A stretch of 64,000 bases of DNA from Deltaproteobacteria bacterium. GTDB taxonomy: Bacteria > Desulfobacterota > Binatia > Bin18. The position numbers and the translations under genes are program-made. Every line of letters begins with the position of its first letter. Within the stretch, counting starts at the first letter, position 1. Location of the stretch: positions 40,887 through 104,886 of the forward strand of contig VGTJ01000001.1 in the NCBI GenBank assembly GCA_016874775.1, in the 5' to 3' direction. Positions 9,251 through 54,715 of the stretch are shown piece after piece. The notes under the pieces are model-generated. The model did not search any database, was not told the DNA's origin, and was given only the letters and a program-made list of their open reading frames with translations.

Positions 9251-9713
9251 ATTCATACGGCACCTCACATTTAGGAGCCCTATAGTAACCAGCATCGTAG
9301 TGGAGAGTTAAGAGTTAAGAATGGAGGAAAAGAGGGCTCAGCTCTTTCTCAGTTCTTTTTCTGACTCTTCACGCTTCACTCTTAATTCTTCACTGACTTC
9401 CTATTGTTTACTTGTTGTCTGTAACGCCAACTCATCGAGCAATGTCTTGGCTGCCTGTAAGTCGGCAGTGTCGAACCCTTCAGTAAACCATGCGTACACT
9501 TCAGATAACATCCTGTGTGTTTCAGCCAGAGCTGGCAGTTGCGCAGATGATGGTGCGTGAGTCGTGTTGCGTGATGTCCGCTCATCTACTTGATGTTGTC
9601 GCAACCTCGCGAGACTCATCACGGCGCGCAACTCTAGCGATTTGGCGTGCTGTTGTTGAGCGATAGCGATAGCTTTGAGGAAACACTCCTCCACCTCCCG
9701 CATCACCCCATTG

Positions 9714-9786
9714 GGGGCTAGAGACTTGAGACTAGGGGCTTGTGGGGAAAAACCAGTCTCTAACCTCCAGCCTCTAGCCTCCGCGA
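9714..9786. repeat. ~70-bp palindromic element (gagacttg...agcctctagcctcc), copy 1, in-frame inside the regulator TPR region
   Basis: It shares gagacttg, ggggcttg/ccaagcc and agcctctagcctcc with the copy at 12109-12180. It has terminal inverted repeats ggctagag/ctctagcc and encodes the peptide RGWRLETGFSPQAPSLKSLAPNG. Confidence 0.5.
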
Positions 9787-12108
9787 GCGTTAGCTCGCCC
9801 TTGAGCCGATACAACTCCGCTTCATAAAACCGTTCGCCGGTGCTGTCTGCGATCTTCAGTGCTTCTTCCAATAATGACAATCCTTCTACGGCCTGTCCGA
9901 CTTTGCCATCGGCTTCGGCTAGCATGGCCAAATACTGGGTGCGCTCGGATTCAGAACCGATCGCGCGCAATGCGTCGAGGCCTTCATGGATTCGTGCGAT
10001 CCCGGCCTCATCTTGGTCTCGCTCTGTGAGTGCCCAGCCGGAAAACAACGTGCCGACCGCTGTCCACAGCGGAAAGCCGTATTCTCGCGACAAGGTTAAG
10101 ATATCGTTCGCCCGTTCCTGCACAAGTTGTTCTTCGCGTTGAAAGCGATGAAACTGAGCTGAGAGTCCCAACGCTGTTGTATGCACGTGTGGATGAGAGA
10201 CTTCATGGGCAAGCGTCAGAGCCGCATTGTTCCGTTGGCGGGCTTGATCGGGATAGCCACGAAACCACAGCGTCCAGGCGGCAAAGGCGCGTGAGGCGAC
10301 ACCAGGATCATCGCCGTAGAGCAACGCAATCGTACGGTGTCGTTGCACATCATAAAGGGCGATGCTCTGGTGAGATGTTCCTGAGCTGTAACGAGATCGC
10401 CGAGCAGAAACAGTACGTAGCCAAGCATGCCGTGTGCGCCCATGAGTAACGTTTGGTCGTGGGCATGTTGCGCGAGCTGTAGCAGTTGGTTAGCCAATTC
10501 TCGTGCGATAGCGAATTGTCCGCGGACAACGTAGTGGCGATAGAGCCCTGCCAGCGCGGGAAAGAGGGGTGGGGTAACCCCGATTTCTTGACATAACGTT
10601 CGGGCCTCAGCATACACAGCTTCCACCTCGGGTGCGGCGTGGCCTTTGGCTGTGACTAACGAGCCGCCAAGAATGAGCCGTAAAGACAGCTCTTGCTGTT
10701 TCCGTTCTTGGCAGTCAGGGAGATGAGTCAGTAACGACAAGGCTTTGGTGAAGTGCAGGATTGCTTCTTGGTGCGCATGGCGTCGAGTTGCGTTCCTGCC
10801 TGCTTGCCACCGATGGTGCAGCGCGCGAGGATAATCCCGTCCTTGCTCGAAACGTATGGCCAGTTCGGTTGCGATTTCTCGTGCCCGGCTTCCATACGCG
10901 GCTTCGAGTTGTTCGCCGATACGTTGATGTTGGATGATGCGTTGGCGTGCTGTGAGACGCTCAGCGAGAACTTGCTGATGCAAGACATGGAAGAAGCGAT
11001 AACGGGAAGTGACCATGCCATTGGGCCACTCTTCGGTGCCTTTGCGTTGGAGAAACAGGGACTGACGTACGAGTCCCTCACAGCTGGCTTCTACTGCATC
11101 GATGTCCTCGCTCGCGCCTGCGGCAACTGCGGCAGCGGAAAACTCTCTTCCGATGATGCTTGCCGTTTGCAGTATGCGTTGCGCACTGTCGCTGACCTGG
11201 TCAATCTGATGCTCGATGAAGGCATGGAGACCACCGGGAATATCGAGATATTGCACCGTTTGCTGGAAACTCCAGTCACCGCCGCGACCGTCATTCACTT
11301 CTCGTGACACAATATAGTCCACTAAACTGACCATAAACAGCGGGTTGCCCTCTGTACGTTGATGAATCATCTGGGCGAATTGTTGGAGTCCAGACTGCAC
11401 GGCGGGTGCAGCGATAGGGAGACGCGTGGTGATGTAGTCTGCAACCGCAGCGAGTGAGAGCGGCTTGATGACCAGCTCTTCGCAATAGTGGTGAACCTGG
11501 AGATCGTACTTCAACGATTTTAGTGGATGGTTATGCTGTTCTACATCGCTCAGGCGATAGGTCGCGATGATGAGGAGCCGCGCAGGCTGCGGACGACGTG
11601 CGACATACGACAGGAGATCAAGGGTGGCGCTGTCACTCCAGTGAAGATCGGCAAAATGAAACACGAGTGTCTGTTGCTCGGTCAGTGCTTCCAACGCTTC
11701 AGCCAGTTCTCGCAGCATCCGTTCTTTTGTGGAGCTGAGCACACGGGGGCGCAGCGCTTCGAGTGTTTCGTTGGTCACGACGCTCGGCATCTGCGCGAGC
11801 CAGGTCGGTGCGTTCCGACTCAGCGTGTCAACGATGTGTTCATGATCTGGTGCGCGGCAGAGTTGCGTCAATGCTTCCAGCACTGGCATGTACGGCTCGC
11901 CTTCACCAAACTGCGCCAGGCAGTGGCCGCGCGAAATAGCAACGTCCGCGTGGCCCGTCAATCGTTCTAGAAATGTTTCCACGACCGTGGTCTTACCGAT
12001 CCCTGCTTCGCCAGTAACGAACACTATCTGGCGTCTCCCAGTTTTGGCAGCACCTAACCAAGAGTGAAGTTGTGTCAGTTCTGCGTTGCGGCCAACGAGA
12101 CTGGAGGC

Positions 12109-12180
12109 GAGAGACTTGTAGGTTTGCAGGAGGGGGAGGGAGGACCAGCCCCAAGCCTCTAGCCTCCAGCCCCAAGGTGG
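12109..12180. repeat. ~70-bp palindromic element, copy 2, coinciding with the frame switch between the winged-helix and ATPase parts of the regulator
   Basis: It encodes PWGWRLEAWGWSSLPLLQTYKSL in the downstream frame, while the upstream winged-helix frame reads through it out of register. Confidence 0.5.
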
Positions 12181-12511
12181 GCGGCGTGGAGGTGGCAAGC
12201 GGAGCGATAAACTGATACCCGCGTCGATGCACGGTCTCAATAAACTGTGGAGCCTTTGCCTGGTCAGCTAAAGCTTCACGAATTTCGCGAATGCAAACTT
12301 TCAGGACAGCAGCACTCACACGAACATCCGGCCACAGCGCTGCGAAGAGTTCCTCTTTGGTGACTAACTGACCAGCGCGTCCGACGAGATAACACAATAC
12401 TGAGAAGGTTTTGGGTTTAAGCGAGAGTTTTTCAGTGTCACGCCACAGATGCGCGTTGGCCACATCGAGACGAAACGCCCCAAAGCTGACGGTGTGGGTA
12501 TCAATCATGTG

Positions 12512-24506: not shown

Positions 24507-24617
24507 TCAGTAGGAAAAGAAGGGCATCCGTAGGCAGAGTAGAGGAAGGAGCATTGATCATGAGCACTATTTTATGCTGGCTACTGGCTACCGACTACTG
24601 GCTACTCTGAGGTTTGT

Positions 24618-25703
24618 ATGCCCAAACGCACTCCTCTCTACGATACTCATCGATCTCTTGGGGCTCGCGTGATCGAGTTCGGCGGCTGGGATATGCCGGT
24701 GCAATACAGTGGCATCCTTGCCGAGCATCACGCTGTACGGACCAAGGCTGGTCTGTTTGATCTGAGCCATATGGGTGAGATTGAGGTCAGTGGGCCTCAT
24801 GCACTTGAGGCGTTGCAAGAACTGGTTGTGACAGATGTTGCTCGTGTCCAACTGGGCCAAGCGCAATACGCGCTGATGTGTTATCCTGACGGTGGCATTG
24901 TCGATGACATTATCATTTATCGCCAGGCTGAAGATCGCTTCTTTGTTTGCGTGAACGCTGCCAATATCGACAAAGACTTTGCGTGGATGACAGAACATAA
25001 TCGCCTCAAGGCGGTGATGGTTGATCACAGTGACGAATATGCTCTTATTGCTGTCCAGGGACCAATGGCTGTCGCGATCGTGCAACGCTTGACTTCGCTC
25101 AATCTGGCACAGATCAAACGCTATTGGTTTGCAATGGGAGAAGTCGCCGGAGTGCAGGCTCTGGTTGCGCGCACTGGTTACACTGGAGAAGACGGATTTG
25201 AGTTGTTTGTTGCTGCTGACCAAGCCGTGAAAGTATGGAACGCGTGTCTGGAAGCGGGCCAGTCTGACGGTCTTTTGCCGATTGGCTTGGGTGCGCGAGA
25301 CACATTGCGCCTCGAAGCCGCGTATATGTTGTACGGCAATGATATCGATGCGCAAACGACTCCTTTAGAAGCAGGGCTACAGCGACTTGTCAGGTTTGAA
25401 AAACCTGCGTTTCTCGGACGGGACGCGCTGTCGCAGCAACAGTCGACGGGAATAGGCAAACAATTTGTTGGTTTGAGCATGGATGAAGCTGGTATTCCTC
25501 GACATGGGTACTCGTTGTGGCACGATGGCCAGCGCGTTGGGGTAGTGACGAGCGGGACACAGTCCCCCTCGCTTGGCGTTGGCATTGCGCTAGGGTACGT
25601 TCCTCCTGCGGGCGCTGCGGTGGGAACGTCACTAACAGTGGAGATCCGTGGTCGACAGGTACGAGCGCATATCGTAACACGACCATTTTATCGCAAGGGA
25701 TGA
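24618..25703 (+). CDS. gcvT: glycine cleavage system T protein (aminomethyltransferase)
   Basis: RTPLYDTHRSLGARVIEFGGWDMPVQY...AGLFDLSHMG matches GcvT. Confidence 0.9.
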   Translation: MPKRTPLYDTHRSLGARVIEFGGWDMPVQYSGILAEHHAVRTKAGLFDLSHMGEIEVSGPHALEALQELVVTDVARVQLGQAQYALMCYPDGGIVDDIIIYRQAEDRFFVCVNAANIDKDFAWMTEHNRLKAVMVDHSDEYALIAVQGPMAVAIVQRLTSLNLAQIKRYWFAMGEVAGVQALVARTGYTGEDGFELFVAADQAVKVWNACLEAGQSDGLLPIGLGARDTLRLEAAYMLYGNDIDAQTTPLEAGLQRLVRFEKPAFLGRDALSQQQSTGIGKQFVGLSMDEAGIPRHGYSLWHDGQRVGVVTSGTQSPSLGVGIALGYVPPAGAAVGTSLTVEIRGRQVRAHIVTRPFYRKG

Positions 25704-27717: not shown

Positions 27718-29196
27718 ATGAAAAAAAGAACATTACTGGACGAATCTCTCATCTTCGAACGTAGCTCACCAGGCCGTGTCGGTTACTCATTGCCAGAAGA
27801 CGACCTGCCAGAAAGGCAACTCTTACAGGATGTTCCTGTTGATCTGTGCCGTACCGCGCTTGCGGATTTTCCTGAAGTCAGTGAAGGTGAAATCGTTCGC
27901 CATTTTACGCGCTTGTCGCAGTGGAATCTGAGCGCGGCGACGACGCTGTACCCGCTGGGCTCGTGCACCATGAAATATAACCCTATCGTCAATGAGTTAG
28001 TCGCACGGTTCGCTGGATTGGCCCAACTCCATCCTTTGGTGCCAGATGAGTTCGCCCAGGGAGCGCTTGCCTTGCTGTACGATCTTCAGCACCGCCTTGC
28101 CGAAGTCAGTGGTATGGATGCGATAAGTCTGCAGCCTGCAGCCGGTGCCCAGGGTGAACTGACGGGTATGAAGTTAATCCGCGCACATCATGTCGAGCAG
28201 GGGCGACCACGCAAGAAAGTCCTCATTCCTGGGAGTGCGCACGGTACGAATCCAGCCTCAGCCGCATTGTGTGGCTATACAGTGACAGAAGTTCCGACTG
28301 GGGTAGGTGGCATGCTTGAAGCAGCGACTGTCGCGAAGCATGTTGATGATGAAGTTGCAGCACTGATGGTGACAAATCCGAATACACTCGGCTTGTTTGA
28401 GCGCGAGATCGTGCAGACTTGTGAAGTGCTGCATGCGCGGGGCGCATTGGTGTACATGGACGGCGCCAACCTGAATGCGCTCATGGGTGTAGCGAAACCC
28501 GGTCATATGGGCGCAGATGTTATCCAGTTTAATCTGCACAAAACGTTCTCCACGCCACATGGCGGTGGTGGACCTGGGGCTGGTCCTGTCGGGGTCAAAA
28601 AGATTCTGGAACCATACTTGCCAAATCCACGGGTGGTGAAAGAACGTGGGCAGTATCGATGGAGCAATGACTTTCCTCGATCGATTGGCAAGGTTCGGTC
28701 ATTCTACGGCAACTTTGGTATTCTCGTTCGTGCCTATGCGTACATCCTGGCCATGGGAAGCGATGGACTGACTCAGGCAACGCACATGGCTGTGCTCAAT
28801 GCGAATTATCTGCGTAAACGCCTCGAACACGAATTCACCATTGCCGAAGCGACGCCGTGTATGCATGAATGCGTGTTCTCTGACCGTTCATTTACGCACT
28901 CGGGGGTGAAGACGCTAGATATCGCCAAACGTCTCCTCGACTATGGCTTCTATGCGCCCACGATCTATTTCCCACTGGTTGTGAGTGGTGCGTTGATGAT
29001 TGAGCCGACCGAGACTGAGAGCAAAGAAGCACTCGATGAATTTGCTGACGCACTGCTCGCCATTGCGCAAGAGATCAAAGACAACCCTGATACACTCAAG
29101 AACGCGCCGTTACTCACTCCCGTCAGCCGCCTCGACGAAACCCGCGCTGCACGGCATCCGGTGCTGCGGTGGCGGAAAGAACCAATGAAAAATTAA
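27718..29196 (+). CDS. gcvPB: glycine dehydrogenase (decarboxylating) subunit 2
   Basis: The PLP region is LHKTFSTPHGGGGPG. The start is probably at ATG 27718. Confidence 0.9.
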   Translation: MKKRTLLDESLIFERSSPGRVGYSLPEDDLPERQLLQDVPVDLCRTALADFPEVSEGEIVRHFTRLSQWNLSAATTLYPLGSCTMKYNPIVNELVARFAGLAQLHPLVPDEFAQGALALLYDLQHRLAEVSGMDAISLQPAAGAQGELTGMKLIRAHHVEQGRPRKKVLIPGSAHGTNPASAALCGYTVTEVPTGVGGMLEAATVAKHVDDEVAALMVTNPNTLGLFEREIVQTCEVLHARGALVYMDGANLNALMGVAKPGHMGADVIQFNLHKTFSTPHGGGGPGAGPVGVKKILEPYLPNPRVVKERGQYRWSNDFPRSIGKVRSFYGNFGILVRAYAYILAMGSDGLTQATHMAVLNANYLRKRLEHEFTIAEATPCMHECVFSDRSFTHSGVKTLDIAKRLLDYGFYAPTIYFPLVVSGALMIEPTETESKEALDEFADALLAIAQEIKDNPDTLKNAPLLTPVSRLDETRAARHPVLRWRKEPMKN

Positions 29197-29364
29197 AAAT
29201 GAAGAATGAAGAATTGGAAAAGGGAAAAGTACTGCTCTCTTTTTCCGTGGCCCCTTTCTGCATTTTTAATTCTTCCTTTTTCATTTTGTATTCTTGGCGC
29301 TTTCCTTGACAAAACTCTCGATTCACTCTAGGGGCTAGGTATCCTTGTTCGTAGGAGCAACTGT

Positions 29365-30411
29365 ATGAATTTTGGTCTGCTCACCCTGTTCGATTACTAC
29401 CCCGAGGATTGCTCACCCCAAGAATATTACCGCTTTCTATTGGATGAAATCGCGTACGCCGAAGACCTCGGCTTTGACTCGGTGTGGATGGGCGAGCATC
29501 ATTTCTGTAACTACTTATGCCCATCGCCACAGGTGTTTGCTGCCGCAGTGGCCCAACGAACCAAGCGTCTGCGGCTCGGTACGGCGGTTGCCCTGCTGCC
29601 GTTACATGATCCTGTGCGTTTAGCTGAAGATTATGCGATGGTCGATGTGTTGAGTGACGGGCGGCTCGACTTCGGTGTCAGTCGCGGTTTTCAGAAGACT
29701 AGCTATGACGGTTTCGAGCGTTCGATGGATGACAGTCGAGAACGTTTTGCCGAAGGTATCGAGATTATTGATAAAGCATGGTCGCAAGACTCGATCTCTT
29801 ACGAAGGCCAGTATCGACGACTATCGAATGTGTCCGTTTTACCTCGCCCAGTACAGCGTCCTCGCCCACCGATTTGGATTGGCGCGGGACCAACACCTGA
29901 GTCATACGAACTTGCAGCGGCGCATGGCTATAACATCCTGTTGGCTTCGGTATTCGCGCCGATCAAGACGTTCACTCCGTTTGTCAAACTCTATCGCGAG
30001 CGGTTGCAAGCTGCTGGATTCGATCCTGCGCAGATGTCCACTTCTACTGGGAATCACTGCTATGTAGGGACCTCTTCCGCGCAAGCGAAAGAGGTGTGGG
30101 CCAAGCACTACCTGCGCTATTTCCACTTCGTTTCCACCTTAGTGGAAGAGAAAGACTACCAGCAAAACAAACAGTTCAAAGCCTTTGCTGGGGTGAAGAC
30201 ATTTTTAGAAAAGGTTGATTTCGACAAAGCACGTCAGACCCTGGCGATTTGTGGCGATGCCGAAGAATGCATCGATCGTGTGGCGCAAGCCAAAGAAGCC
30301 GTCGGCAACACCCATTACTGGGTCTACTCCGATCTTGGTGGTTTGCCACGAGAAGAAGTGTGGGCGTCATTGCGCCGCTTTGCTGAGAAAGTAATGCCGA
30401 AGTTTCGCTGA
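29365..30411 (+). CDS. LLM-class flavin/F420-dependent oxidoreductase
   Basis: [13 protein letters not shown] is an LLM N-terminal motif. The protein is 348 aa. Confidence 0.85.
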
Positions 30412-30416
30412 GTACT

Positions 30417-32936
30417 GTGGACGCAATACGTATTCGCGGTGCCCGCGAACATAATCTGAAAAATATCTCGGTTGAGATCCCGCGTAACAAACTCGTGGTG
30501 ATTACCGGAGTCTCAGGTTCGGGGAAGTCGTCGCTTGCGTTCGATACGCTCTATGCCGAAGGGCGGCGACGCTATGTCGAGTCGCTTTCCGCCTACGCGC
30601 GACAGTTTCTTGACCAACGGGCAAAACCAGATGTCGACGCTATCGAAGGTCTCTCTCCAGCGATTGCCATCGAACAACGCAGTGCGACGACATCGCCGCG
30701 TTCGACTGTTGCGACGGTAACCGAGATCGCCGATTATTTGCGAGTTCTCTATGCGCGCGTTGGTACACCATACTGCTTGCAGTGTGGACGAATTATTGCC
30801 CACCATAGCGTGCCGCAAATTGTCGATCGGATTGCCAGTCTCCCTGAAGGTTCGCGTTTGCATGTACTGGCGCCGATTCGACTGACTGAGGCGAAAAACT
30901 TTGTTGCGACTGTGCGTGAGTTGCGACAGGCGGGGTTTGTCCGTGTCCGTGTGGGGGAGACCCAGTACGAACTGGCAGAAGAAGCATCGTTGCCGCGAAA
31001 ACCACCGAGTGAATTCGAGATTGTCATTGACCGCTTGATCGTGAGAAGCGGTATTGCCCAGCGTTTGGCGGACTCGCTCGAAACCGCGCTACGTCATGGC
31101 AAAGATGTGGTGAAAATTCTCGTTGGCGAGCATGAGGAATTGTTGTTTACTCAGCGCTTGGTCTGCGCAGCGTGTGGGTTTTCCTATCCTGAACTGACCC
31201 CAGCCTTCTTCTCTCCTAATAGCCCGCAGGGCACATGTGCGGAGTGTGATGGACTGGGGACACAGGTGGTGAAACAAAAGCCTAAGAAGGCAAGGGGCGC
31301 TGCTACAAGTGAAGAGGAGGGAGGAGAAATCACTTCATGCGCTGCGTGTCACGGGACACGGCTGCGATCGGAGGTGCAGGGCATTCGCCTCGCTGAGCGA
31401 GACATTACCCAAGTGCTGCAGATGTCAATCGTCGAGGCGCAGCAGTTTTTTGCTGCGTTGTCGCTCAGCGACCAACAGACCCTGATTGCCCAGCCCTTAC
31501 GTCAAGCGATTGAGCTACGCCTGCAATTTCTCCTGAATATTGGTTTGAACTATCTTTCCCTTGATCGCCCCGCAAACACTCTTTCCGGTGGAGAAGTACA
31601 ACGGGTGCGACTCGCAACGCAAATCGGAGGTGGGCTCTCTGGCGTTTTGTATGTGCTCGATGAACCGTCGATTGGGCTCCATCAACGTGACACTGAGCGT
31701 TTGCTGAGTGCGTTACGGGAATTGCGCGATCAAGGGAACTCGCTCGTTGTCGTAGAGCATGATCCTGAAACGATCTTGGCGGCTGATTATCTGCTCGATC
31801 TTGGTCCAGGCGCTGGAGCGCAAGGTGGTGAACTCTTGGCTGTCGGAACACCACAGGAAGTGATAGCCTCGCCTGCGTCAATTACAGGTAGTTATCTTCG
31901 TGGGGAGACGAAAATCCCTCTCCTAAAACAGCGACGAGCCGCGCAACAGTGGCTCACGCTTGCTGATGTGACGCTGCATAACCTCAAGAACGTTACCGCT
32001 CAATTCCCGCTTGGTACGCTTACCTGTGTGACCGGTGTCTCAGGTTCAGGAAAAAGCTCGCTGGTGATGGATGTGCTGTACCCACAGGTGACAATTCTAT
32101 TGAACAAAAGGCAGGAAGGCGAAAAGGGCGTCAAACTGTCAGGCTGGCAGCAACTGAAGAGTGTCATTCGCGTCGATCAAGCTCCGATTAGTCGCACGCC
32201 GAATTCCAATGTTGCAACTTATCTTGGCTTGCTCAATCCAATACGCGACCTCTTTGCGCAATTGCCTGAAGCGCGGGTGCGCGGCTATGGACCAGAACGG
32301 TTCTCCTTCAACGTGAAAGGTGGTCGGTGCGAAGCTTGTGAAGGTGACGGGGTCGTTGCAGTCGAAATGCATCTGCTGCCAGATTTATATGTTGAGTGTG
32401 ATGTCTGTCACAGTACTCGCTACAACCGCGAAACCTTAGAAGTGCGCTTCCGGGGAAAAAATATTGCTGAGGTGCTCAGCCTGTCAGTTGCTGAAGCGCT
32501 GGCTTTTGGTGGTGACGTTCCGCTGCTGCGCCCTAAACTCGAAACTCTGCGTGATGTCGGCTTGGAATATCTCCGCTTAGGACAGCCAGCGCCAACGCTT
32601 TCTGGCGGAGAAGCGCAGCGTCTCAAGCTGGCCAAGGAACTGAGCCGTAAAGCATCTGGTCACACGCTGTATATCCTCGACGAACCAACCACAGGTCTCC
32701 ATTTTGCTGATATTCATCGTTTACTGCATGTTCTGCAAATGTTGGTCGAAGGCGGGCATACGGTCATTGTCATCGAGCATAATCTCGAAGTGATTAAGAC
32801 GGCCGACTACGTCATTGATCTTGGCCCCGAAGGCGGTATAGAAGGCGGAGAGATTGTTGCGGTCGGAACACCGGAAGAGATTGCGCAGGTGGAACGTTCG
32901 CATACGGGACGGTTTTTACGGTCGGTGCTTAGGTAG
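30417..32936 (+). CDS. UvrA-like ABC ATPase, short (class II, ~839 aa) paralog
   Basis: The GTG start gives [53 protein letters not shown]. It has two ABC modules and Zn-finger cysteines. At 839 aa it is shorter than canonical UvrA (about 940 aa), which suggests the UvrB-binding domain is missing. Confidence 0.85.
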
Positions 32937-33002
32937 TGTAGACCATATGATTACCGACAAATTGGATGAGGGATTGGTCATTAAACAGACTTCCAGGATC
33001 CT

Positions 33003-33215
33003 TCACTCAGGTTTCAGGATTCCAGCGTATCCCCCATCGCGTTTTAAGCTTTTCACAAAGACAGTAACTGGTTGTTTTTTTGATTCTTGTTGATTTAATA
33101 ACTGCAAGATCTGCTGTGCCACTCGAGTGGCGAAAACGTTAGGTGCCAATCCTGGAGAAAAACCATAACCCCCTTCTTTGGCACGACATGAAGAGACAAA
33201 GTTCATGATACCCAT
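33003..33215 (-). CDS. in-frame continuation of the same toroid-repeat protein after the internal TGA
   Basis: The region 33003-33242 is in the same frame as 33243..34130 (..WYVP*RLDTLSGYPMGIMNF...). It encodes a further PFTB-type repeat, EGGYGFSPGLAPNVFATRVAQQILQLL. Confidence 0.45.
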   Translation of the reverse strand: MGIMNFVSSCRAKEGGYGFSPGLAPNVFATRVAQQILQLLNQQESKKQPVTVFVKSLKRDGGYAGILKPE

Positions 33216-33242
33216 AGGATAGCCACTAAGCGTGTCAAGCCT

Positions 33243-34130
33243 TCATGGGACATACCATTTGTGTTCGTTTACTTTTCTTGCTGGATCGAGATTTAGAATA
33301 GCATGAGTGTGAATGAGATTTGGACGAGCCTTCGGGAGAGTAGAAAAAGCACATTCTTCTTTTGACCAGCAGGCTAGAACGAAACTCTCTATTTTCTCAA
33401 AATAGGAGTTAAGTTCTTTGCCAATTTCTAATGTAGCGGCAAGGCGCGCCGCAAATATACAAGCTGTCAAACAAATGTCTGGAGAGTTGGGGGCAAGAGC
33501 AAAAGAAGCTAAACTTGATTCACGATTATATGAGGGTTGGTATGCTTTTCGGTAACAAGCAACAATATAATTATAAATAGGTTCGCGGAAGTCCTGAACG
33601 GGTTCGCCAAGTTGCCGTAAGATTAATAGGCAGACATGAAGATCAACCAAATCACCCTCATGCGAGCGGTTCTTGGTAATTGCCGACAAATCGGTACGAA
33701 CCTGATCCGTCATTTCTCTCCTGTCTTTTTCAGAAAACCATCCTTCTTCCTCTACCTCTTTGATTTTTGTGCTGAGTGGTGTGTCACATGGCAAATCGAT
33801 CATCGCCTTGATTACGACAATTTTCGCCCTGAAATCTTGAAGTTTACGCTTTAACCCACTTCTTAGGCCATGCTCATTTACGAAGTTGAAGAGGGAGTCC
33901 TTATGGAAATCAGTTTTCTGGTTGAGGAGTTGTTCTACCTCAACAGCGTGGCTTGTTGCAACGAGAGACGGGTTGTCCCATTGAGAGACTTCTTCAATGA
34001 ACGCCGCCTCAAACTTGAGATCTTCCGTAACGACAGGAGGATTAGACTGCCGTCGGTTACGCAAGAGAGAGAAGAGCCAGTCGAATAAGAAGAAGGACAC
34101 GGATGCAATGAAGAAAATGGCCGAAACCAA
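33243..34130 (-). CDS. membrane-anchored prenyltransferase/squalene-cyclase-type repeat (alpha/alpha toroid) protein, main part
   Basis: An N-terminal TM segment (IFFIASVSFFLFDWLFSLL) is followed by repeats of the PFTB type, for example SLASFALAPNSPDICLTACIFAARLAATL and CAFSTLPKARPNLIHTHAILNL. The gene ends at a TGA at 33243-33245, and the same reading frame continues past that TGA. The locus is AT-rich. Confidence 0.55.
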   Translation of the reverse strand: MVSAIFFIASVSFFLFDWLFSLLRNRRQSNPPVVTEDLKFEAAFIEEVSQWDNPSLVATSHAVEVEQLLNQKTDFHKDSLFNFVNEHGLRSGLKRKLQDFRAKIVVIKAMIDLPCDTPLSTKIKEVEEEGWFSEKDRREMTDQVRTDLSAITKNRSHEGDLVDLHVCLLILRQLGEPVQDFREPIYNYIVACYRKAYQPSYNRESSLASFALAPNSPDICLTACIFAARLAATLEIGKELNSYFEKIESFVLACWSKEECAFSTLPKARPNLIHTHAILNLDPARKVNEHKWYVP

Positions 34131-34175
34131 AAAAAAGAGGAAAAAATAAGTTCATCACAGTAACCTTTTCTCGTT

Positions 34176-34751
34176 CTAGCTAGCGATCCTAAAAAGAAAA
34201 TGAAACGCTAGCGGAAAAACGAGAGAACATGCAGCAATACCAAACAAAAAAACGTGCCGGAAAGAGGTCACTTTGTTTGATGAAGTAAAAACTCGAGTAC
34301 AGAATAGAAAAATAAACACAATAACCACAAGAGACAAGGTAAGCATCGCCTTCTCACAGTCGAGGGAAGCTTGGTTATCGCACTTTCGCCCCATGATGAC
34401 AGCAAGCTTTGTTTGACCGCCAGGCTTTGGAAGGATCCAAGAAGAAAATAACGAAACAAGAGAAACGTTGAGGAAATTCTGAGTGGCGCTTCCGATATCT
34501 TTCCATGATCTCCGTACGCTTTTCTTTGGACTTCTAGAGGCAGGTTTTGCGTACCATGGATCCTGACGATTGGTTCTTAATCTTCTGTGGAAAAAAAGAG
34601 TTATACTTCTTAGTGATGGTTCATTTTGTACTCTCCTGACATCAACGAAAGAGAAATGCGCACTCATCATGACAGTAATGGCTAAGGGAAGAAAGACTGT
34701 ATATATACAAAAATTCATTGTCATTACGTCTTTGAGGATGTCGAACACCAT
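34176..34751 (-). CDS. 4-TM integral membrane protein, unknown function (co-directional with the toroid-repeat gene in the AT-rich island)
   Basis: 191 aa with four hydrophobic helices and a basic loop (RRLRTNRQDPWYAKPASRSPKKSVRRSWKD). Confidence 0.5.
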   Translation of the reverse strand: MVFDILKDVMTMNFCIYTVFLPLAITVMMSAHFSFVDVRRVQNEPSLRSITLFFHRRLRTNRQDPWYAKPASRSPKKSVRRSWKDIGSATQNFLNVSLVSLFSSWILPKPGGQTKLAVIMGRKCDNQASLDCEKAMLTLSLVVIVFIFLFCTRVFTSSNKVTSFRHVFLFGIAACSLVFPLAFHFLFRIAS

Positions 34752-34943
34752 ACTTGTTGTGACCTTTTGACGGAAATCTAGCGGTTTATTTCAGATAGAG
34801 CGAAGGGTTGTCAAGCTATTCGCTTCAGAAAGAGCGTGAGTTCAAGCATAGAAACAAAGCAGACTCTTCAAACAAAAGCCCCAGGTTCCCTTGACAGCTC
34901 TCAGCCTGCATCTTATCGTAGACTTGTAAGGTCCATTTTAAGA

Positions 34944-35012
34944 CACGTAAAACGTACCCAGTAAAACGTAATAAGGAAGAGTGGGGTGGTTACGCATCAC
35001 GTTTTACGTTTT
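34944..35012. promoter_or_regulatory. cluster of gtaaaacgta motifs (two direct, one inverted) in the iscA leader
   Basis: The copies are acacgtaaaacgtaccc, agtaaaacgtaat and cacgttttacgtttt. A related gcgtaaaacgtaatacgtaacc occurs after gcvPA at 27645-27668. Confidence 0.35.
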
Positions 35013-35028
35013 CTGCAGGAAGAAAAGC

Positions 35029-35361
35029 ATGGCGCAAGCGACAATTGATATCAGTGAGAATGCGGCAAAGAAGATTCAGTCACTCTTGGCTCAACAGGAA
35101 AAAGACGCACAGGGGCTGAGGGTCAAGGTTGTTGGCGGGGGGTGTTCAGGGCTCTCGTACAAGATGGACCTTGATGTCCAACGTGATGGTGACCGAGTCT
35201 TTGAGCGCGATAACGTTAAAGTGATTGTTGATCGCAAAAGTTTTATTTATCTCCGCGGCACCGAGCTAGACTACGCTGACGGGCTGATGGACTCTGGGTT
35301 CAAACTACAAAACCCTAACGTCAAACGCTCGTGTGGCTGTGGTAGCTCGTTCTCGGTGTAA
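35029..35361 (+). CDS. iscA: A-type iron-sulfur carrier (IscA/ErpA/HesB family)
   Basis: VGGGCSGLSYKMDLD and the C-terminal CGCGSSFSV give the three conserved Cys. Confidence 0.9.
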   Translation: MAQATIDISENAAKKIQSLLAQQEKDAQGLRVKVVGGGCSGLSYKMDLDVQRDGDRVFERDNVKVIVDRKSFIYLRGTELDYADGLMDSGFKLQNPNVKRSCGCGSSFSV

Positions 35362-35378
35362 GCCGCGCTGTATGATGC

Positions 35379-36038
35379 ATGACTACTGTTGCTGTTCTGC
35401 GGTGTTGGCGGTGTGCCCATGAGCATTCCGCCACACTCTTCTGCCCGCGCTGCTCTGCCGTTCAACCCCTCCCACCTCAGACCGATTATTTCACTGTTTT
35501 TGGCTTACCCCTTCGACCAGCAATCGATGAAGCTGGGCTGACTCAGCGGTATTACGACCTCAGCCGCCGTCTTCATCCTGACCTGTACCAGGCTGGCACT
35601 GCAGAAGAAAAAGACGCGAGTCTGAAAAATACGGTTCTTTTGAATCGCGCGTATCGGACCTTGCGGGATCTGATTACGCGTGGTCAATACTGGCTTGAAA
35701 TGCAAGGCGAAGCCCTCGGGAAGGAGAACAACCGTGTCCCGCCGACGCTTGCTGCCTTGGTGTTCGAGGTACAAGAGAAATTGGCCGAGATCCGTGATGC
35801 GCGAGCTGCAGGTGACGGTGAGGTCGATATCGCTACTCTGACGGAAATTCGCGCTGACCTGGATGGACAAATGCAGCGACTCCGTACCGCCTTAGTTGGG
35901 AATCTTGAGCAGTGGCCTGAGCCCTCGCGCTCGCAAGAATTACTTGTGCAACTGAAACGGTTATTATCTGAAATTGCTTATTTGCGTACCTTGTTACGTG
36001 ATGTGGAAAAAGAGAGTGAGGTTTCGTGGAACGCATAG
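35379..36038 (+). CDS. hscB: Fe-S co-chaperone HscB (J-domain) with an N-terminal Cys4 zinc finger
   Basis: CWRC...CPRC is followed by the J-domain [35 protein letters not shown]. Confidence 0.85.
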
Positions 36039-37837
36039 TTGGTATCGACCTTGGAACAACCAACAGTCTGATTGCTTTTGTAGATGGCGAGACACCACGT
36101 GTGATCGCTGATCCTACTAGCGGTGATCCATTGCTTCCCTCGGTCGTTGCATTTCTTACCAACGGCCAGATTGAGGTTGGACAGGAGGCCAAGGCGCTTC
36201 TTGCCGACCAGCCACTGACAACGATTCAATCGGTGAAACGCTTCATGGGATTAGGCATGGAGCATGTTAATGTGGAAGACCGTCGACGCTATCGTTTTGC
36301 TGATGAAGGTGGTGTTGTCCGCTTCGCGTTGCCAGGCCATCCCTATACTGCACCGGAAGTGTCTGCCTTTATCTTACGAGCCTTGCGAGATCGCGCAGCA
36401 GTGTACTTAAAAGAACCCATCAATAAAGTAGTGATTACTGTTCCTGCGTATTTTAACGACTCGCAACGACAAGCCACGAAGGATGCCGGTCGATTAGCAG
36501 GGCTAGAAGTGGTGCGCTTAGTCAATGAGCCCACTGCCGCATCGCTTGCCTACGGCCTTGATAAGAAGGAAGAGGGGCTTATTGCTGTCTATGATTTGGG
36601 TGGCGGCACCTTCGACATTTCGATCTTGCGATTGCACACCGGAATCTTTGAAGTCCTGTCGACCAATGGTGATACGCGACTGGGTGGGGATGATATCGAC
36701 CAGCGGATCGCAGAACGGTTTCTTCTGGTAGGCCTTCCTGAAGCAGTACAGCATGATCCGCACGTTGCCAGTAGTGCCCGGCGTGTGGCCGAACAAGCAA
36801 AGCGAGCCCTCTCTGACAACGATGACACGCAACTGCGCTTAGAAGTGCCGGAGAAGAAGGTGTCGATTACGCGAACCCTCGCGCGCAAAGAGTTAGAAGC
36901 TGCGGTTGATGATATCGTTGCACGGACCTTAGCTCCGTGCCGACAAGCATTAAAAGACGCCGGCCTTGAACCACGCGAGATCGATGAAGTGGTGATGGTG
37001 GGTGGCTCGACGCGGATGCCGTTGGTGCGCCGGCGTGTTGGTGAGTTCTTTGGTCGCAAGCCACTGACTGACCTCAACCCTGACGAAGTTGTTGCGTTGG
37101 GGGCAGCAGTACAAGCCGATACACTTGCCGGACGTCGTAAAGACATGTTGCTGCTTGATGTGGTGCCGCTCTCGCTGGGTATTGAGACGATGGGCGGAGT
37201 AATGAGTCGCCTGATCGAACGCAATACGACGATTCCCACGAGTGTGAAAGAAACCTATACGACAGCAGTGGATGACCAGACCGCGGTCGATATACACGTT
37301 CTGCAAGGCGAGCGTGAATTGGTGCAGGATTGCCGCAGCCTCGCGCGCTTCAAAGTGCCGATCGATCCCCAACCAGCGGGAATGCCGCGTATCGAAGTGA
37401 CGTTCATGATCGATGCGAATGGCATCCTCAATGTTGCCGCTTTAGATATGCGCACAGGGCGTGAGCGTTCAGTCGAGGTCAAACCTTCATATGGGTTGAC
37501 TGATGAAGAAATTGAGCGGTTGCTCGAAGAGTCGATCGATTTTGCCGAAGACGATGTCACTCGCAGATTGATCATCGAAGCGCGCACGGAAGCAGATACC
37601 TTACTGCATGTGACAGAAAAGCAATTGCAGCAACACGCTGCGTTTCTTCAGCTTGGCGAAGAAGCGAAGATTCGCGCTGTCGTGGCGGCTCTCAAAGAAG
37701 CGAAAGAGGGCGAGGACTATAATCGCACTCGTGACCTGATTGAAGAATTAGGGACGACCTCAGCACCTTTTGCGCAGCGGATTATGGATACCTCGATTGG
37801 TGAAGCATTGGGAGGAAGAGAGTTGGGAAGGGTGTAG
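36026..37837 (+). CDS. hscA: Fe-S chaperone HscA (Hsp70 family)
   Basis: [18 protein letters not shown] and [12 protein letters not shown] are Hsp70 signatures. The start overlaps the hscB stop. Confidence 0.9.
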
Positions 37838-37914
37838 CTGCTGGGAGTGCGGGCGTCCCGCCCGCAAAAAAGGCGACCGAGACGGTCGCGCTCCCGGGAA
37901 CAAGTGAGGAATAT

Positions 37915-38127
37915 ATGAAACTCTACTGGGACACTCCCGAAGATATTGCTGAACAACTTTTCGAAGCTCACGCTGAGATTGACCCACTCACCGTGCGTTT
38001 TACTGACTTACATCGTTGGATAATAGAGCTGGAAGGGTTCGCAGATGACCCAAAAGCATCCAGTGAAGGAAAACTAGAAAAAATTCAAATGACCTGGCTA
38101 GAACTCTACAAAGAACAAAACGAATGA
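37915..38127 (+). CDS. iscX: Fe-S assembly protein IscX (YfhJ)
   Basis: The 70-aa MKLYWDTPEDIAEQLFEAHAEIDPLTVRFTDLHRWIIELEGFADDP matches E. coli IscX closely. Confidence 0.8.
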   Translation: MKLYWDTPEDIAEQLFEAHAEIDPLTVRFTDLHRWIIELEGFADDPKASSEGKLEKIQMTWLELYKEQNE

Positions 38128-38236
38128 TATACACTATGTAGTGTTGTCTAGAGTCCAGCCCGTAAGGGCTGTTGGTTGTGGTGGATGTGGCGATCAAGGA
38201 AGTGATCCTTGGTCAGAAAGGGTAGGAGGCTTCAGT

Positions 38237-38656
38237 ATGAAGGACCAACGTGTCGCGGATGGGGGAGCAGGCGTTTTCCAGCCGGATTTTCTTCTTCCTC
38301 TCCAATTCTTCACCGGGACCCGTGGAAAAGGATGTGGCGAAGGCGAGCGTCGTTTGATGCTGGCCATCTTGGAAGATGCGGTTGATTGTTTCCAGAAATA
38401 TCTGGGAACGCGGGAAAGTCGCGGTCGACTGCTTTGCTCTGATGCTGAGGAGTGGTTTATGTCAGATGACCGCAGTTGGCTGTTCTCATTCGTCAATGTC
38501 TGCGAAGTGCTCGGATTACAGCCCGACTTTATTCGTGAAGGGTTACAGGACTGGAAGACGAGACAGCTGGAAAAAGCATTGTCACCAAAGCCACCGGTAG
38601 CAGATGGACCAACACAAGCAAGAGGTCGAAAACGGGGGACGTTGGTGGCGGCGTAA
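38237..38656 (+). CDS. hypothetical protein (139 aa), no family recognised
   Basis: A strong Shine-Dalgarno GGTAGGAGG precedes the start. The protein has a helical, acidic core (RRLMLAILEDAVDCFQKYLG...AEEWFMSDDRSWLFSFVNVCEVLGLQPDF) and a basic tail. The overlapping S-rich minus ORF 38194..38910 is judged a shadow ORF. Confidence 0.45.
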   Translation: MKDQRVADGGAGVFQPDFLLPLQFFTGTRGKGCGEGERRLMLAILEDAVDCFQKYLGTRESRGRLLCSDAEEWFMSDDRSWLFSFVNVCEVLGLQPDFIREGLQDWKTRQLEKALSPKPPVADGPTQARGRKRGTLVAA

Positions 38657-38674
38657 GTTGTCGGTAGGGTGAAG

Positions 38675-38701
38675 AAGAGATTTGAGCTGATCTCTTTTTC
38701 G
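38675..38701 (+). terminator. rho-independent terminator (aagagat-ttgagctg-atctctt-tttcg)
   Basis: A 7-bp stem and 8-nt loop are followed by a T-run immediately after the hypothetical gene. Confidence 0.5.
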
Positions 38702-38854
38702 CGGTAACTCCTCACAATGGTCATTCTGAGCAACGCGAGGAATGTGTCAGTAAGACTCTTCGCTACGCTCAGAGTGACGTTGTCGTTGTCCAGGTCACTT
38801 GAGACCTGACTGCGTGCGGCCAACTCGACAGAGCAAGCAACGAACGAACCGTTC

Positions 38855-40534
38855 ATGCCCATACGCAAATCCCTCACCCGTCGTACCGTACTCGCCTTCT
38901 TGTGGGGCAAGGATCACCTTGCGCGTTTGTTCGGACGGACGAAGCCGTACAATGTTGTTCGTCTCGAACTGTCTGGCGCTTTACCAGAAGAGGCAGGACT
39001 CTCTCTGACCAATCTGTGGCATCGTACGAGCCTTGATTTTTTCTCTGCAACGTCGTTGTTGCGTTGGTTGAGAGAAGATCCGCAGGTGAAAGCTGTCGTG
39101 CTGACGATTGCTGACCTCGAAGTGGGATGGGCGCGACTCCAAAGCCTGCGCCGTTCGCTTTTGGCGTTACGTCAGGCAGGAAAACTCGTATGGGTGTACG
39201 TTGCCGAAGGTGGCATGCGTGAATACTATTTCGCCAGTGCCGCCGATAAAATCTTCCTCGCTCCTGCTGGGCATCTGGCGATCACTGGGTTGGCGGCAGA
39301 GACCATGTTCTTTAAAGGCGCGCTAGATAAACTTGGGGTGACGGCACAAGTCCATCGTGCTGGCCGCTACAAGTCGGCGGCTGAGCCGTTTACGCACGAA
39401 TCGATGTCGCCAGCCAATCGTGAAATGCTCGATAGCTTGCTTGATGACCTCTATGGCCAGATTGTTGATGACATTGCCGACGCCCGTCGCAAGGCAAAGG
39501 CCGATGTGCGCGCACTGATTGATCATGGGTTATTTCTCGCTCGCGAAGCCCTGGCGGCTGGGTTGATCGATCACGTTGGGTACGAGGATGAAATCGATAC
39601 ACTGCTGGAAGCGCAATTGGGCGAGGTCGAAACGATTGAACTTGCGGACTATCAACGCCAGTACGGACGGACGCTCCGACGACGATTACTGCGGGAGGAT
39701 CATGGAAAGATCGCAGTGGTCACAGTAGATGGTCCGATCAAACGTGGAGAGTCCGTCGATGGTGGTGAGGGAACGCACGCGGTGGGATCGACCTCTTTTG
39801 CTGCCGATGTGAAAGAGGCGCGCGAAGATGAGTCGATTGCCGCGATTGTCGTACGCATCACCAGTCCCGGCGGTTCTGGATTAGCGTCTGATCTGATGTG
39901 GCGCGAACTGGTCAAAACCAGTGGAGAAAAACCAATAGTGATATCGATGGGCGATGTTGCCGCCTCTGGGGGATATTATCTGGCACTTGCTGGTGGAAAA
40001 GTGTTCGCCGAGGCCGGCACCATTACTGGTTCCATTGGCGTGATCGCTGGTAAAGCGGTCTTACGTGATCTGTATACACGTGTTGGCGTGAATAAAGATA
40101 TTATTACGCGGGGGAAAAAAGCTGCACTCTTTTCAGATTACCATGAGTTTTCCCCAGCTGAACGAGAACGTTTGGATTTTGAGATTCAAGCGTTTTATCA
40201 AGACTTCCTCTCCAAAGTCGCTTCTTGTCGCTCGTTAAGTATCGAGGCGGTTGAACCCAATGCCCAAGGCCGAGTTTGGAGCGGGCGACAGGCCTGGTCG
40301 CGCGGACTGATTGACGAGATTGGCGGCCTCGAAGAAGCGTTGCGCGAGGCCAAACACCGAGCTGGTTTTGCTGCCGATCAACCCGTTATGGTCGAACGCT
40401 TCCCCAGGCCTTCGTCCGTGTGGCAATTGCCAAAACTCCTGCGTCGTTTTCCCCGTACGCGCCTCGGCCTTCCCCTGTGGTGGGGGCAAGAGCGAGTCTG
40501 GGCCATTATGCCGTTTTCTCTACGATTTTTATAA
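38855..40534 (+). CDS. sppA: signal peptide peptidase SppA (S49 family, 67K type)
   Basis: VISMGDVAASGGYYLALAGGKVFAEAGTITGSIGV is the S49 Ser-Lys dyad region. Confidence 0.85.
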   Translation: MPIRKSLTRRTVLAFLWGKDHLARLFGRTKPYNVVRLELSGALPEEAGLSLTNLWHRTSLDFFSATSLLRWLREDPQVKAVVLTIADLEVGWARLQSLRRSLLALRQAGKLVWVYVAEGGMREYYFASAADKIFLAPAGHLAITGLAAETMFFKGALDKLGVTAQVHRAGRYKSAAEPFTHESMSPANREMLDSLLDDLYGQIVDDIADARRKAKADVRALIDHGLFLAREALAAGLIDHVGYEDEIDTLLEAQLGEVETIELADYQRQYGRTLRRRLLREDHGKIAVVTVDGPIKRGESVDGGEGTHAVGSTSFAADVKEAREDESIAAIVVRITSPGGSGLASDLMWRELVKTSGEKPIVISMGDVAASGGYYLALAGGKVFAEAGTITGSIGVIAGKAVLRDLYTRVGVNKDIITRGKKAALFSDYHEFSPAERERLDFEIQAFYQDFLSKVASCRSLSIEAVEPNAQGRVWSGRQAWSRGLIDEIGGLEEALREAKHRAGFAADQPVMVERFPRPSSVWQLPKLLRRFPRTRLGLPLWWGQERVWAIMPFSLRFL

Positions 40535-40648
40535 GGTGAGGGGCTCCGTATTCTTGGTGCTTGTAATAGGAACCCAGCTACGCTAGGTTCCTGACAATTT
40601 CTTTGCACAACCCCCCTTTCATAAGGGATAAGACAGAAAGGAAAAGGA

Positions 40649-42508
40649 ATGGCGACGACCCCAGTAGCTTCTGCGCTACCGAAACAGGTGCAGGAGCGGG
40701 AGAGTGTAGTTATCCGTTTCGCTGGTGACTCTGGCGATGGGATGCAAGTGACCGGGACGCAGTTTGCGACTGAGTCGGTGCTGGCTGGCAATGATATTGG
40801 TACACTGCCGGATTTCCCCGCAGAAATCCGCGCTCCTACCGGAACCCTGTATGGTGTGAGTGCGTTTCAGGTGCAGTTTGGCAGTCGGAGTGTATACACT
40901 CCTGGTGATGATCTTGATGCGCTGGTGGTGATGAACCCAGCCGCGCTAAAGACCAACCTTGGCGATCTGAAACAGAATGGGGTGCTTATTGTTGATAAGG
41001 AAGAGTTCAACGAAGCGAACCTGAAGAAAGCCGATTACACTACCAATCCTCTAGAGGATGGATCGCTCGCCAAGTATCAAGTATATCCGATCGAAATCAC
41101 CAGGATGACAACCTCTGCACTGGAGGCGCTCAACTTGCCGAATCGGTCGGTTATGCGTTCTCGCAACTTCTTTGCCTTGGGGGTAGTGTCCTGGCTCTAT
41201 CAACGACCGATTGAAAATACTTTGCAGTGGATCAACCAACGCTTCAAGCGCAATAATGAAGTCCTCGAAGCGAATACACGAGCACTCAAAGGCGGCTACG
41301 ATTACGCCGAGAATACTGAAATTTTTGCTTCGTCGTATTCAGTCAAACCTGCGCAAATTGCGCCAGGGACCTATCGTAATATCTCAGGCAATACGGCAAC
41401 AGCCCTCGGGTTCGTGGTGGCCGCGAAGAAAGCCGGTCTGCCTTTGTTCTTAGGCAGTTATCCCATCACCCCAGCGAGTGATGTCCTGCATGAACTTGCG
41501 TCCTTCAAAGATTTCGGCGTCATGACATTTCAGGCCGAAGACGAAATTGCCGGGGTCGGCTCAGCGTTGGGAGCGGCGTTTGGTGGGTCAATCGCGATCA
41601 CCACGACCGCTGGTCCAGGCATGAACCTGAAAGCTGAGACCATTGGTTTGGCGACAGTTGTCGAACTCCCCATGGTCATTACTGACATTCAGCGGTCAGG
41701 GCCGAGTACTGGTATGCCGACGAAGCCTGAACAGTCGGATCTCTTACAGGCGTTGTATGGTCGGCATGGCGACGCACCAATTCCTGTTGTTGCGGCATCG
41801 ACTCCTTCGGATTGTTTCTTTGCCGCGTTTGAGGCGGTCCGTATTGCAGTGACGTATATGACGCCCGTCGTTCTGCTCACTGATGGTTATCTGGCCAATG
41901 CGTCTGAGCCGTGGCTGTTACCGAAAGTTTCTGACTTGCCGGAGATCAACATTCAGTTCCGGACCGACCCACAAGGGTTTTTTCCGTATCTGCGAGATGA
42001 GAACACGCTCGCTCGTCCCTGGGTACGGCCAGGAACTCCTGGGCTCGAACACCGTGTGGGCGGGTTGGAGAAGGATTATACGACCGGCAACATCAGTTAT
42101 GCGCCAGCGAACCACGAACAAATGGTGCGAGTCCGCTTTCGCAAGGTGGCGAAGATCACCCAAGATATTCCACCGACCAAGGTTCATGGTCCTGAGCGAG
42201 GCAAACTGTTGGTGATTGGTTGGGGAAGCACCTACGGTTCGATCACTGCAGCGGTCGGCGAATCTCAGCAACAAGGCAAGTCTGTGTCGCATGTCCACTT
42301 ACGGCACTTGAACCCACTTCCGGCGGACCTCGGCGAGGTCATGTCTCGTTTCGAAAAAGTCTTAGTGGTGGAGATGAACATGGGGCAACTGCTACGTGTG
42401 TTGCGTGCAGAGTACTTGATTGACGCAGTAGGGCTCAACAAAATTCAGGGACGCCCATTCAAAGTTTCCGAGATTATTACCCGGATCGACCGTATGTTGG
42501 AGGAATAG
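40649..42508 (+). CDS. korA: 2-oxoacid:ferredoxin oxidoreductase, alpha (fused gamma-alpha) subunit
   Basis: 619 aa with a PFOR/KOR domain I and III layout. A GAAAGGAAAAGG Shine-Dalgarno precedes the start. Confidence 0.9.
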   Translation: MATTPVASALPKQVQERESVVIRFAGDSGDGMQVTGTQFATESVLAGNDIGTLPDFPAEIRAPTGTLYGVSAFQVQFGSRSVYTPGDDLDALVVMNPAALKTNLGDLKQNGVLIVDKEEFNEANLKKADYTTNPLEDGSLAKYQVYPIEITRMTTSALEALNLPNRSVMRSRNFFALGVVSWLYQRPIENTLQWINQRFKRNNEVLEANTRALKGGYDYAENTEIFASSYSVKPAQIAPGTYRNISGNTATALGFVVAAKKAGLPLFLGSYPITPASDVLHELASFKDFGVMTFQAEDEIAGVGSALGAAFGGSIAITTTAGPGMNLKAETIGLATVVELPMVITDIQRSGPSTGMPTKPEQSDLLQALYGRHGDAPIPVVAASTPSDCFFAAFEAVRIAVTYMTPVVLLTDGYLANASEPWLLPKVSDLPEINIQFRTDPQGFFPYLRDENTLARPWVRPGTPGLEHRVGGLEKDYTTGNISYAPANHEQMVRVRFRKVAKITQDIPPTKVHGPERGKLLVIGWGSTYGSITAAVGESQQQGKSVSHVHLRHLNPLPADLGEVMSRFEKVLVVEMNMGQLLRVLRAEYLIDAVGLNKIQGRPFKVSEIITRIDRMLEE

Positions 42509-51862: not shown

Positions 51863-51965
51863 CAGGGGCCACGTCGGCTGTTGTTGGTTGCCTCGATTCT
51901 TGCGTTGAGAGGCACTCCTCCTTGATTCTTTCACGGATTTCTCTTATACCGGTCTTCTCTCACAG

Positions 51966-53929: not shown

Positions 53930-54118
53930 TGATCTGTCCCTTTTGCTCTGGCTTTGCGCCTGCGGTTCGTTATGATCCGTGGTGAGTATGCGTGGCTTGA
54001 AGAATCATTTATGGTGTCAAAAAGACCAAGTTCGTACGGTACTGGAAAACGTGACGTGATTCGCTATCGTGACGCGTTTCACCATGTATAACTTTATGTT
54101 TGACAGAAAGGAAACCTC

Positions 54119-54715
54119 ATGACGCATCGAATCGATGCTGCTGAAGAAAAAACTGAGAAGAGCGAGAAGACCGAAAGCCTTTCAGAGCAATTGACGTTCA
54201 AGTCTCGCTTTGTCCTGGTTTTTGGTGAGATTAATCACGCGACTGCGCGGGCGACGTGCGAGCGACTCATTGCGCTTTCACAAGAGTCGGACGCTCCTAT
54301 CCGAGTGTTAATTTCCTCGCCTGGTGGTCATGTCGAGTCTGGCGACGCGATTCACGATATGATTCGCTTCGTTCGTTCACCGGTGACAACGGTTGGGACA
54401 GGGTGGGTCGCAAGTGCCGGGACTCACATCTTCCTCGCCGCGCCAAAAGACCGTCGCGTGTGTTTACCGAATACCCGTTTCATGATCCACCAGCCTGGTG
54501 GCGGTGCGGGTGGCCCAGCTACTGATATTGCGATTCAAGCGAAAGAGATTCTGCGCACCCGCGAGCGCATTGCCCAAGTGATCGCGAAGCAAACTGGGCA
54601 GCCACTGAAGAAAGTGCTTGCTGACATGGAACGTGACTTCTGGATGAGTGCCGATGAAGCGATCGAGTATGGCATCGTCTCGCGGGTGATCGAGACGCAT
54701 AAGGAACTGCAGTGA
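54119..54715 (+). CDS. clpP: ClpP-family serine protease with an N-terminal extension (no clpX adjacent)
   Basis: LISSPGGHVESGDAIHDMI and the conserved Ser in GWVASAG, His in MIHQP and Asp in ERD give an intact catalytic triad. Confidence 0.85.
   Translation: MTHRIDAAEEKTEKSEKTESLSEQLTFKSRFVLVFGEINHATARATCERLIALSQESDAPIRVLISSPGGHVESGDAIHDMIRFVRSPVTTVGTGWVASAGTHIFLAAPKDRRVCLPNTRFMIHQPGGGAGGPATDIAIQAKEILRTRERIAQVIAKQTGQPLKKVLADMERDFWMSADEAIEYGIVSRVIETHKELQ

Follow-up and report, generated by a model that had tools for sequence, protein, structure and literature searches.

A probable, very recent TGG-to-TGA mutation in a prenyltransferase-like toroid gene in a strain of an uncultured bacterium

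The DNA examined here, 'the window' in what follows, is a 64,000-nt stretch of a metagenome-assembled genome (MAG): contig VGTJ01000001.1 of assembly GCA_016874775.1, positions 40,887 to 104,886 of the forward strand. Between uvrA (30417–32936, + strand) and the iscA-hscB-hscA genes (from 34981, + strand) it contains an islet of low GC content, at approximately 33000–34800, with a GC fraction of 0.42–0.43 compared to ~0.53 in the flanks. The islet contains only two genes, one for an alpha/alpha-toroid protein and the other for a hydrophobic orphan. The toroid gene is interrupted by an in-frame TGA. In the order in which the complementary strand is read, the features are:

34176..34751, minus strand: hydrophobic orphan ORF of 191 aa, just upstream of the toroid gene; its protein cluster has one member
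33246..34130, minus strand: upstream part of the toroid gene, 295 codons from the TTG at 34130, or 285 from the GTG at 34100
33243..33245, minus strand: premature stop, TGA, in the context CCA-TGA-AGG (the plus strand reads 'tca')
33006..33242, minus strand: in-frame continuation of 79 codons, the last toroid repeat, which matches PF00432 and is now severed from the ORF
33003..33215, minus strand: ORF of 70 aa with its ATG at 33215, which has an entry of its own, hypothetical protein FJ147_00325 (MBM4254324.1)
33003..33005, minus strand: native stop, TGA, of the intact gene, at which the intact allele (P0005) ends ...GGYAGILKPE

The upstream part, entered at NCBI as FJ147_00330 (MBM4254325.1), specifies a hydrophobic helix at the N-terminus together with most of the alpha/alpha-toroid domain. 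NCBI and JGI both chose the GTG, rather than the TTG, as its start. Reading of the ORF and its frame confirms that the 295-aa version ends ...NEHKWYVP at the TGA, as the initial annotation had stated. The 79-codon tail starts RLDTLSGYPMGIMNFVSSCRAKEGGYGFSPGLAPNVFATRVAQQILQLL and finishes RDGGYAGILKPE, and displays the repeat pattern FxxxC...GGYGFSPG...TRxAxQI...GGYAG. The sequence around the UGA is given as ...TATGTCCCATGAAGGCTTGAC... and ...AAATGGTATGTCCCATGAAGGCTTGACACG..., and the full-length protein reads YVP-W-RLDTLSGYPMGIMNFVSSCR across the stop. Members of the family stop within a few residues of a conserved GYxG motif, which supports 33003..33005 as the native terminus. No Shine-Dalgarno-like GGAGG motif is visible in the sequence upstream of the ATG at 33215, and the 70-aa ORF most likely owes its annotation to the split and is no independent gene.

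The islet was probably acquired horizontally, to judge from its composition. Low GC and location fit an acquired accessory gene, and in genes of this kind such losses are common. The 191-aa ORF has no significant match in Pfam or PADLOC, and the PADLOC defence models likewise match neither the toroid protein, nor its homolog, nor its neighbors. A promoter and terminator scan of 32800–35100 returned counts at the level expected from shuffled sequence. Two irregular genes lie elsewhere in the window. At 9401–12267 on the minus strand, two ORFs overlap in different frames: 10216..12267 covers positions 480–1042 of the TIGR03903 profile and 9401..10489 the adjoining positions 1040–1261, both with scores far below the NCBIfam cutoff. 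A single large gene seems to have been disrupted here by a frameshift, or by an indel error, within 10216–10489. At 49601–51943, also on the minus strand, a 780-codon stop-to-stop ORF matches both LptF (residues 48–394) and LptG (430–777) above the curated cutoffs, and here the genes for the two LPS-export permeases seem to have been joined in one reading frame.

An open frame beyond a stop codon is no special feature in this DNA—other genes in the window are followed by 46–319 open codons—and it is homology, instead, that leads us to regard the tail as real. By itself, the 79-residue tail matches Pfam PF00432 (Prenyltransferase alpha-alpha toroid) with an E-value of 8.2e-5. The 295-aa ORF alone has no PF00432 match in Pfam; the joined protein scores 27.2 bits, and the gathering cutoff is 26.5. 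Apart from the ORF (P0001, 'MAG: hypothetical protein FJ147_00330 [Deltaproteobacteria bacterium]'), a word-indexed search of 5.8 billion proteins returned only a single true homolog, P0002, of 522 aa. The tail is colinear with the C-terminus of this homolog, up to its ...RNGGYAG motif, and the gene shares 32% identity with P0002 before the stop and 31% after it; by this measure, therefore, the tail has undergone no detectable extra decay. (A three-sequence MAFFT alignment placed the separate tail onto the preceding repeat, and the joined sequence, alignment A2, was used instead.) P0002 and 19 further homologs run uninterrupted through the stop region, and so the gene must once have been continuous. 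The initial annotation had described the tail as one more repeat of the same family, and as a genuine family repeat it stands; a paralog of the toroid gene within the window is another matter, for tblastn found none. Neither extra stops nor frameshifts nor relaxed constraint were found in the tail, and all 79 of its codons are open.

The intact gene came to light among close relatives of the split one. The 90%-identity cluster of P0001 holds a 365-aa member, P0005, that comprises both pieces joined, with tryptophan at the position of the stop (...KWYVPWRLDTL...). Its DNA, contig L006, belongs to the Logan assembly of ERR14789947, and across the 12.9 kb that correspond to 29188–42099 of the window the two sequences are 99.907% identical, differing by 11 SNPs and one homopolymer indel. 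All 11 SNPs are transitions: four are synonymous, six non-synonymous and one nonsense. The nonsense change is the sole substitution inside the toroid gene. At 33243 the plus strand has T in the window and C in L006; read on the minus strand, the third base of the codon is A rather than G, giving TGA in place of TGG. The tryptophan of P0005 is a real TGG codon, then, and not the product of translation with an alternative code. The ten substitutions outside the toroid gene all fall within coding ORFs, and six of them are non-synonymous. Such a pattern, entirely of transitions and rich in non-synonymous changes, is typical of what very recent, weakly purged strain divergence would leave behind. 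The indel is a run of T on the minus strand (T8 in the window, T9 in L006; 34129–34136) directly 5' of the candidate TTG start at 34130; it leaves the frame from either start unchanged, and may reflect either true variation between the strains or an error in the homopolymer.

Only one contig, L006, carries the intact allele. Exact-pattern scans across the site, with N at the variable base, gave no matches in JGI metagenome contigs and none in the GTDB species-representative genomes, and a literature search on the run and protein accessions found no mention of them. The TGA allele, in contrast to the intact one, recurs in four assemblies besides the MAG: L001–L004, from Logan (SRR7990526, SRR7990525 and SRR7052762) and ENA (ERZ27247963). 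These contigs are identical to the window over their full 1.6–6.9 kb, including the TGA and the positions at which L006 varies. They stem from at least three runs and two pipelines, Logan and ENA, the comparison being between assembled contigs.

What does the split remove? With a cutoff of E ≤ 1e-3, an exhaustive profile search finds 147 cluster representatives of the toroid family, of which 41 reach E ≤ 1e-10. Of the 21 full-length members aligned (A3), none is interrupted at the stop position, which falls in a variable, gapped loop between repeats. The last repeat, however variable the loop before it, is among the best-conserved parts of the family: Cys305 is invariant and F301, G311, R326 and A328 are nearly so (P0005 numbering), and all five lie downstream of the premature stop and are lost from the truncated form. 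An AlphaFold2 (AF2) model of the intact allele, made from the 21-sequence alignment, has a mean pLDDT of 84.6 and a pTM of 0.85. In this model the stop sits in a low-confidence loop, residues 271–290, and the helices beyond it (296–304, 322–334 and 343–351) have pLDDT values mostly above 90. Loss of these three helices and of the invariant cysteine should leave an open, probably unstable toroid. Because the tail holds that cysteine, the four near-invariant residues and the three toroid helices, the 295-aa product is probably inactive: as sequence and model have it, the ring probably cannot close, and the protein would be either non-functional or strongly hypomorphic.

The intact product is predicted to be a membrane-anchored alpha/alpha-toroid protein resembling the beta subunits of prenyltransferases. 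Sixteen of the 21 aligned members match PF00432, the best with an E-value of 2.8e-9. The best Foldseek matches in the PDB are the beta subunits of RabGGTase and GGTase3 (E 4e-7, TM 0.54–0.61), and nearly all of the top 45 are beta subunits of prenyltransferases; searching the PDB sequences with a profile leads to RabGGTase beta, as well, with E ~1e-13. Similarity to the prenyltransferase beta/terpenoid cyclase alpha-alpha toroid superfamily (PF00432) extends, then, to the sequence of the repeats and to the predicted fold. Identity to the solved prenyltransferase enzymes is only ~12%, however, and the family to which the window's gene belongs has, unlike them, an N-terminal membrane helix or a long extension. 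It is a distinct bacterial family, and an uncharacterized one. Its members conserve the cysteine of a CLTAC motif (C210), the histidine of an LxHT motif (H264) and the invariant cysteine of the last repeat (C305), a pattern that could mark a candidate metal site comparable to the Zn site in the beta subunits of prenyltransferases. No neighboring gene resembling an alpha subunit was seen.

Some members of the family come in a longer form, of 510–520 aa. The two of these with readable context, in L005 and L007, have a homologous gene of 454–539 aa directly upstream (L005 2–1621, L007 351–1715); the two partners are 28% identical to each other (E 2e-34), and the L007 pair abuts a DDE transposase. 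The long-form gene and its partner may form a conserved two-gene cassette. The short-form gene of the window is without an upstream partner. A link to defence by way of the partner was considered and set aside: a weak CAP12/Pycsar-TIR match in L005 (E 0.023) was not reproduced in the L007 homolog.

How, then, did the TGA come to be in the gene, and is it read as a stop? The initial annotation offered three readings, a very recent nonsense mutation, readthrough or recoding, and a sequencing error, and these and others can be set against one another. That the organism really has TGG, and the TGA is an error of sequencing or assembly, is suggested by the single base that separates the window from the intact allele, and by the window's origin in a MAG. 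It is very unlikely nonetheless, because four further assemblies carry the same base on identical DNA, up to 6.9 kb of it, from at least three runs and two pipelines; and the intact allele lies on a haplotype of its own, with 10 other SNPs. The two haplotypes are ~0.09% apart, and so represent two real lineages. Reassignment of TGA throughout the genome, to tryptophan (code 4-like) or to glycine (code 25), could draw on the tryptophan of the sister strain, and is the least credible reading of all; it is refuted by the conserved genes that end in TGA. This codon is the stop of 14 of the 42 long ORFs in the window, and gcvT (24564–25703) and clpP (54104–54715) reach the last positions of full-length NCBIfam models directly before it. 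TGA is an ordinary terminator in this genome, the GC content of which, 53%, is also unlike that of the known code-4 and code-25 lineages. Selenocysteine, inserted at the UGA under the direction of a bacterial SECIS element, is scarcely more credible, and can be considered effectively refuted. The stop is indeed a UGA and the frame beyond it stays open and homologous, as in bacterial selenoprotein genes; selenoproteins are common in Deltaproteobacteria, moreover, and NCBI labels the MAG 'Deltaproteobacteria bacterium'. But no obvious SECIS hairpin had been seen at the outset, and none has emerged since: no stretch of RNA around or downstream of the UGA folds more stably than its dinucleotide-shuffled counterparts (z –0.79 over 101 nt, –1.14 over 60 nt and +0.56 over 50 nt), and Rfam, searched over 32900–34900 at permissive E-values, gives chance-level eukaryotic matches only. 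A tRNA search of the 64-kb window found no tRNA whatever, hence neither tRNA-Sec nor tRNA-Trp, and no selA, selB or selD occurs among the window's long ORFs scanned with NCBIfam. Alignment of orthologs, recommended initially as a check, is equally unfavorable to selenocysteine: the sister allele has tryptophan, the 20 homologs show gaps or varying residues in this column, and none has cysteine. The site falls in a variable loop, of low confidence in the model, and not at a redox center.

Two further readings leave the TGA as a stop but allow the gene to function in spite of it. The pieces might be a functional split gene, the 295-aa protein and a separately initiated 70-aa protein assembling non-covalently into a complete toroid. 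The ATG at 33215 is only nine codons (27 nt) from the stop, termination–reinitiation over such distances is known in bacteria, and gene callers do annotate the 70-aa ORF. The ATG lacks a Shine-Dalgarno motif, however; the roughly 20 full-length homologs in the alignment are all undivided at this point; and one SNP from the intact allele, the gene has had no time to adapt to life in two pieces. We think this improbable, if less so than an error of assembly. Somewhat less improbable, though still unlikely, is that the allele is leaky—hypomorphic, rather than null—with near-cognate Trp-tRNA(Trp) reading the UGA at a low level. Because the ancestral codon would be the tryptophan codon TGG, readthrough would regenerate exactly the wild-type protein. 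Pro(CCA)-UGA-A is a comparatively weak context for termination in E. coli, the tail has not decayed further, and the allele occurs in several datasets. In wild-type E. coli, basal readthrough of UGA on a reporter is about 2% (37°C) or 4% (25°C), the level being set by competition between Trp-tRNA(Trp) and RF2 (PMC10570021), and UGA can be decoded, too, by bacterial tRNA-Trp variants that have an anticodon stem of 4 bp (PMC13092985). The UGA of the window resembles the leaky codons of these systems in its origin from UGG, but it differs from them in that there is no sign of elevated readthrough, no stimulatory RNA structure downstream and no conservation of the stop. Programmed readthrough, which calls for a conserved stop and a downstream element, fares no better: the closest relative has a sense codon, no homolog is interrupted and no stable structure is found. 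The sequence offers no argument for readthrough that is enhanced or programmed, and the suggestion of recoding with which the locus was first annotated is left without support. The missing decay, furthermore, is explained equally well by the youth of the mutation in strains that differ by 0.09%. Leaky reading, it should be said, is compatible with a nonsense mutation and alters only its consequence. One might go a step further and suppose that the TGA allele is maintained, decoding by tRNA-Trp, possibly a variant with a 4-bp anticodon stem, giving a low, tunable dose of the wild-type protein. This is more doubtful than simple leakiness; if true, the allele would be a naturally occurring 'leaky Trp-to-opal' dosage variant, persisting in several of the populations sampled.

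The explanation that we prefer, and consider very probable, is that the TGA is an ordinary and very recent nonsense mutation in one strain, and the gene an incipient pseudogene. On this view, one clonal lineage of an uncultured bacterium would very recently have undergone a single transition, G to A, in the last base of the tryptophan codon (TGG to TGA; window position 33243, minus strand). This would have cut the toroid protein 80 residues before its natural end and set the gene, within its low-GC accessory islet, on the way to becoming a pseudogene. The direction of change, from TGG to TGA, we infer from the homologs: all are uninterrupted, and TGG is therefore taken to be ancestral. Both alleles are present on near-identical backgrounds. 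The first of the readings proposed initially appears, then, to have been the correct one; by the rule that accompanied it, an intact ortholog marks a simple pseudogene, and the near-identical strain does have TGG in an otherwise identical 365-aa gene. We call the pseudogene 'incipient' since it has not degenerated further, as befits a mutation so young. One observation counts against a null allele: the TGA occurs in at least four datasets and the MAG without a second disabling mutation. Recurrence without a second lesion also fits an allele that is tolerated and still partly functional.

Strain-level nonsense polymorphism is a phenomenon already known, and the case described here has the familiar attributes of strain-specific incipient pseudogenes in accessory genes: a single transition creates the stop, a near-identical strain is intact, the gene lies in an islet of atypical composition, and the remnant ORF has been annotated as a small gene in its own right. 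Nothing material distinguishes it from these, other than that the mutant allele is found in several metagenomes without further decay. FJ147_00330 and FJ147_00325 are very probably fragments of one gene that a single SNP has disrupted, and would be better annotated as a pseudogene, or disrupted gene; recoding biology need not be invoked to account for the split. As a by-product, the intact gene defines a small bacterial family, of 147 cluster representatives, that could merit separate study.
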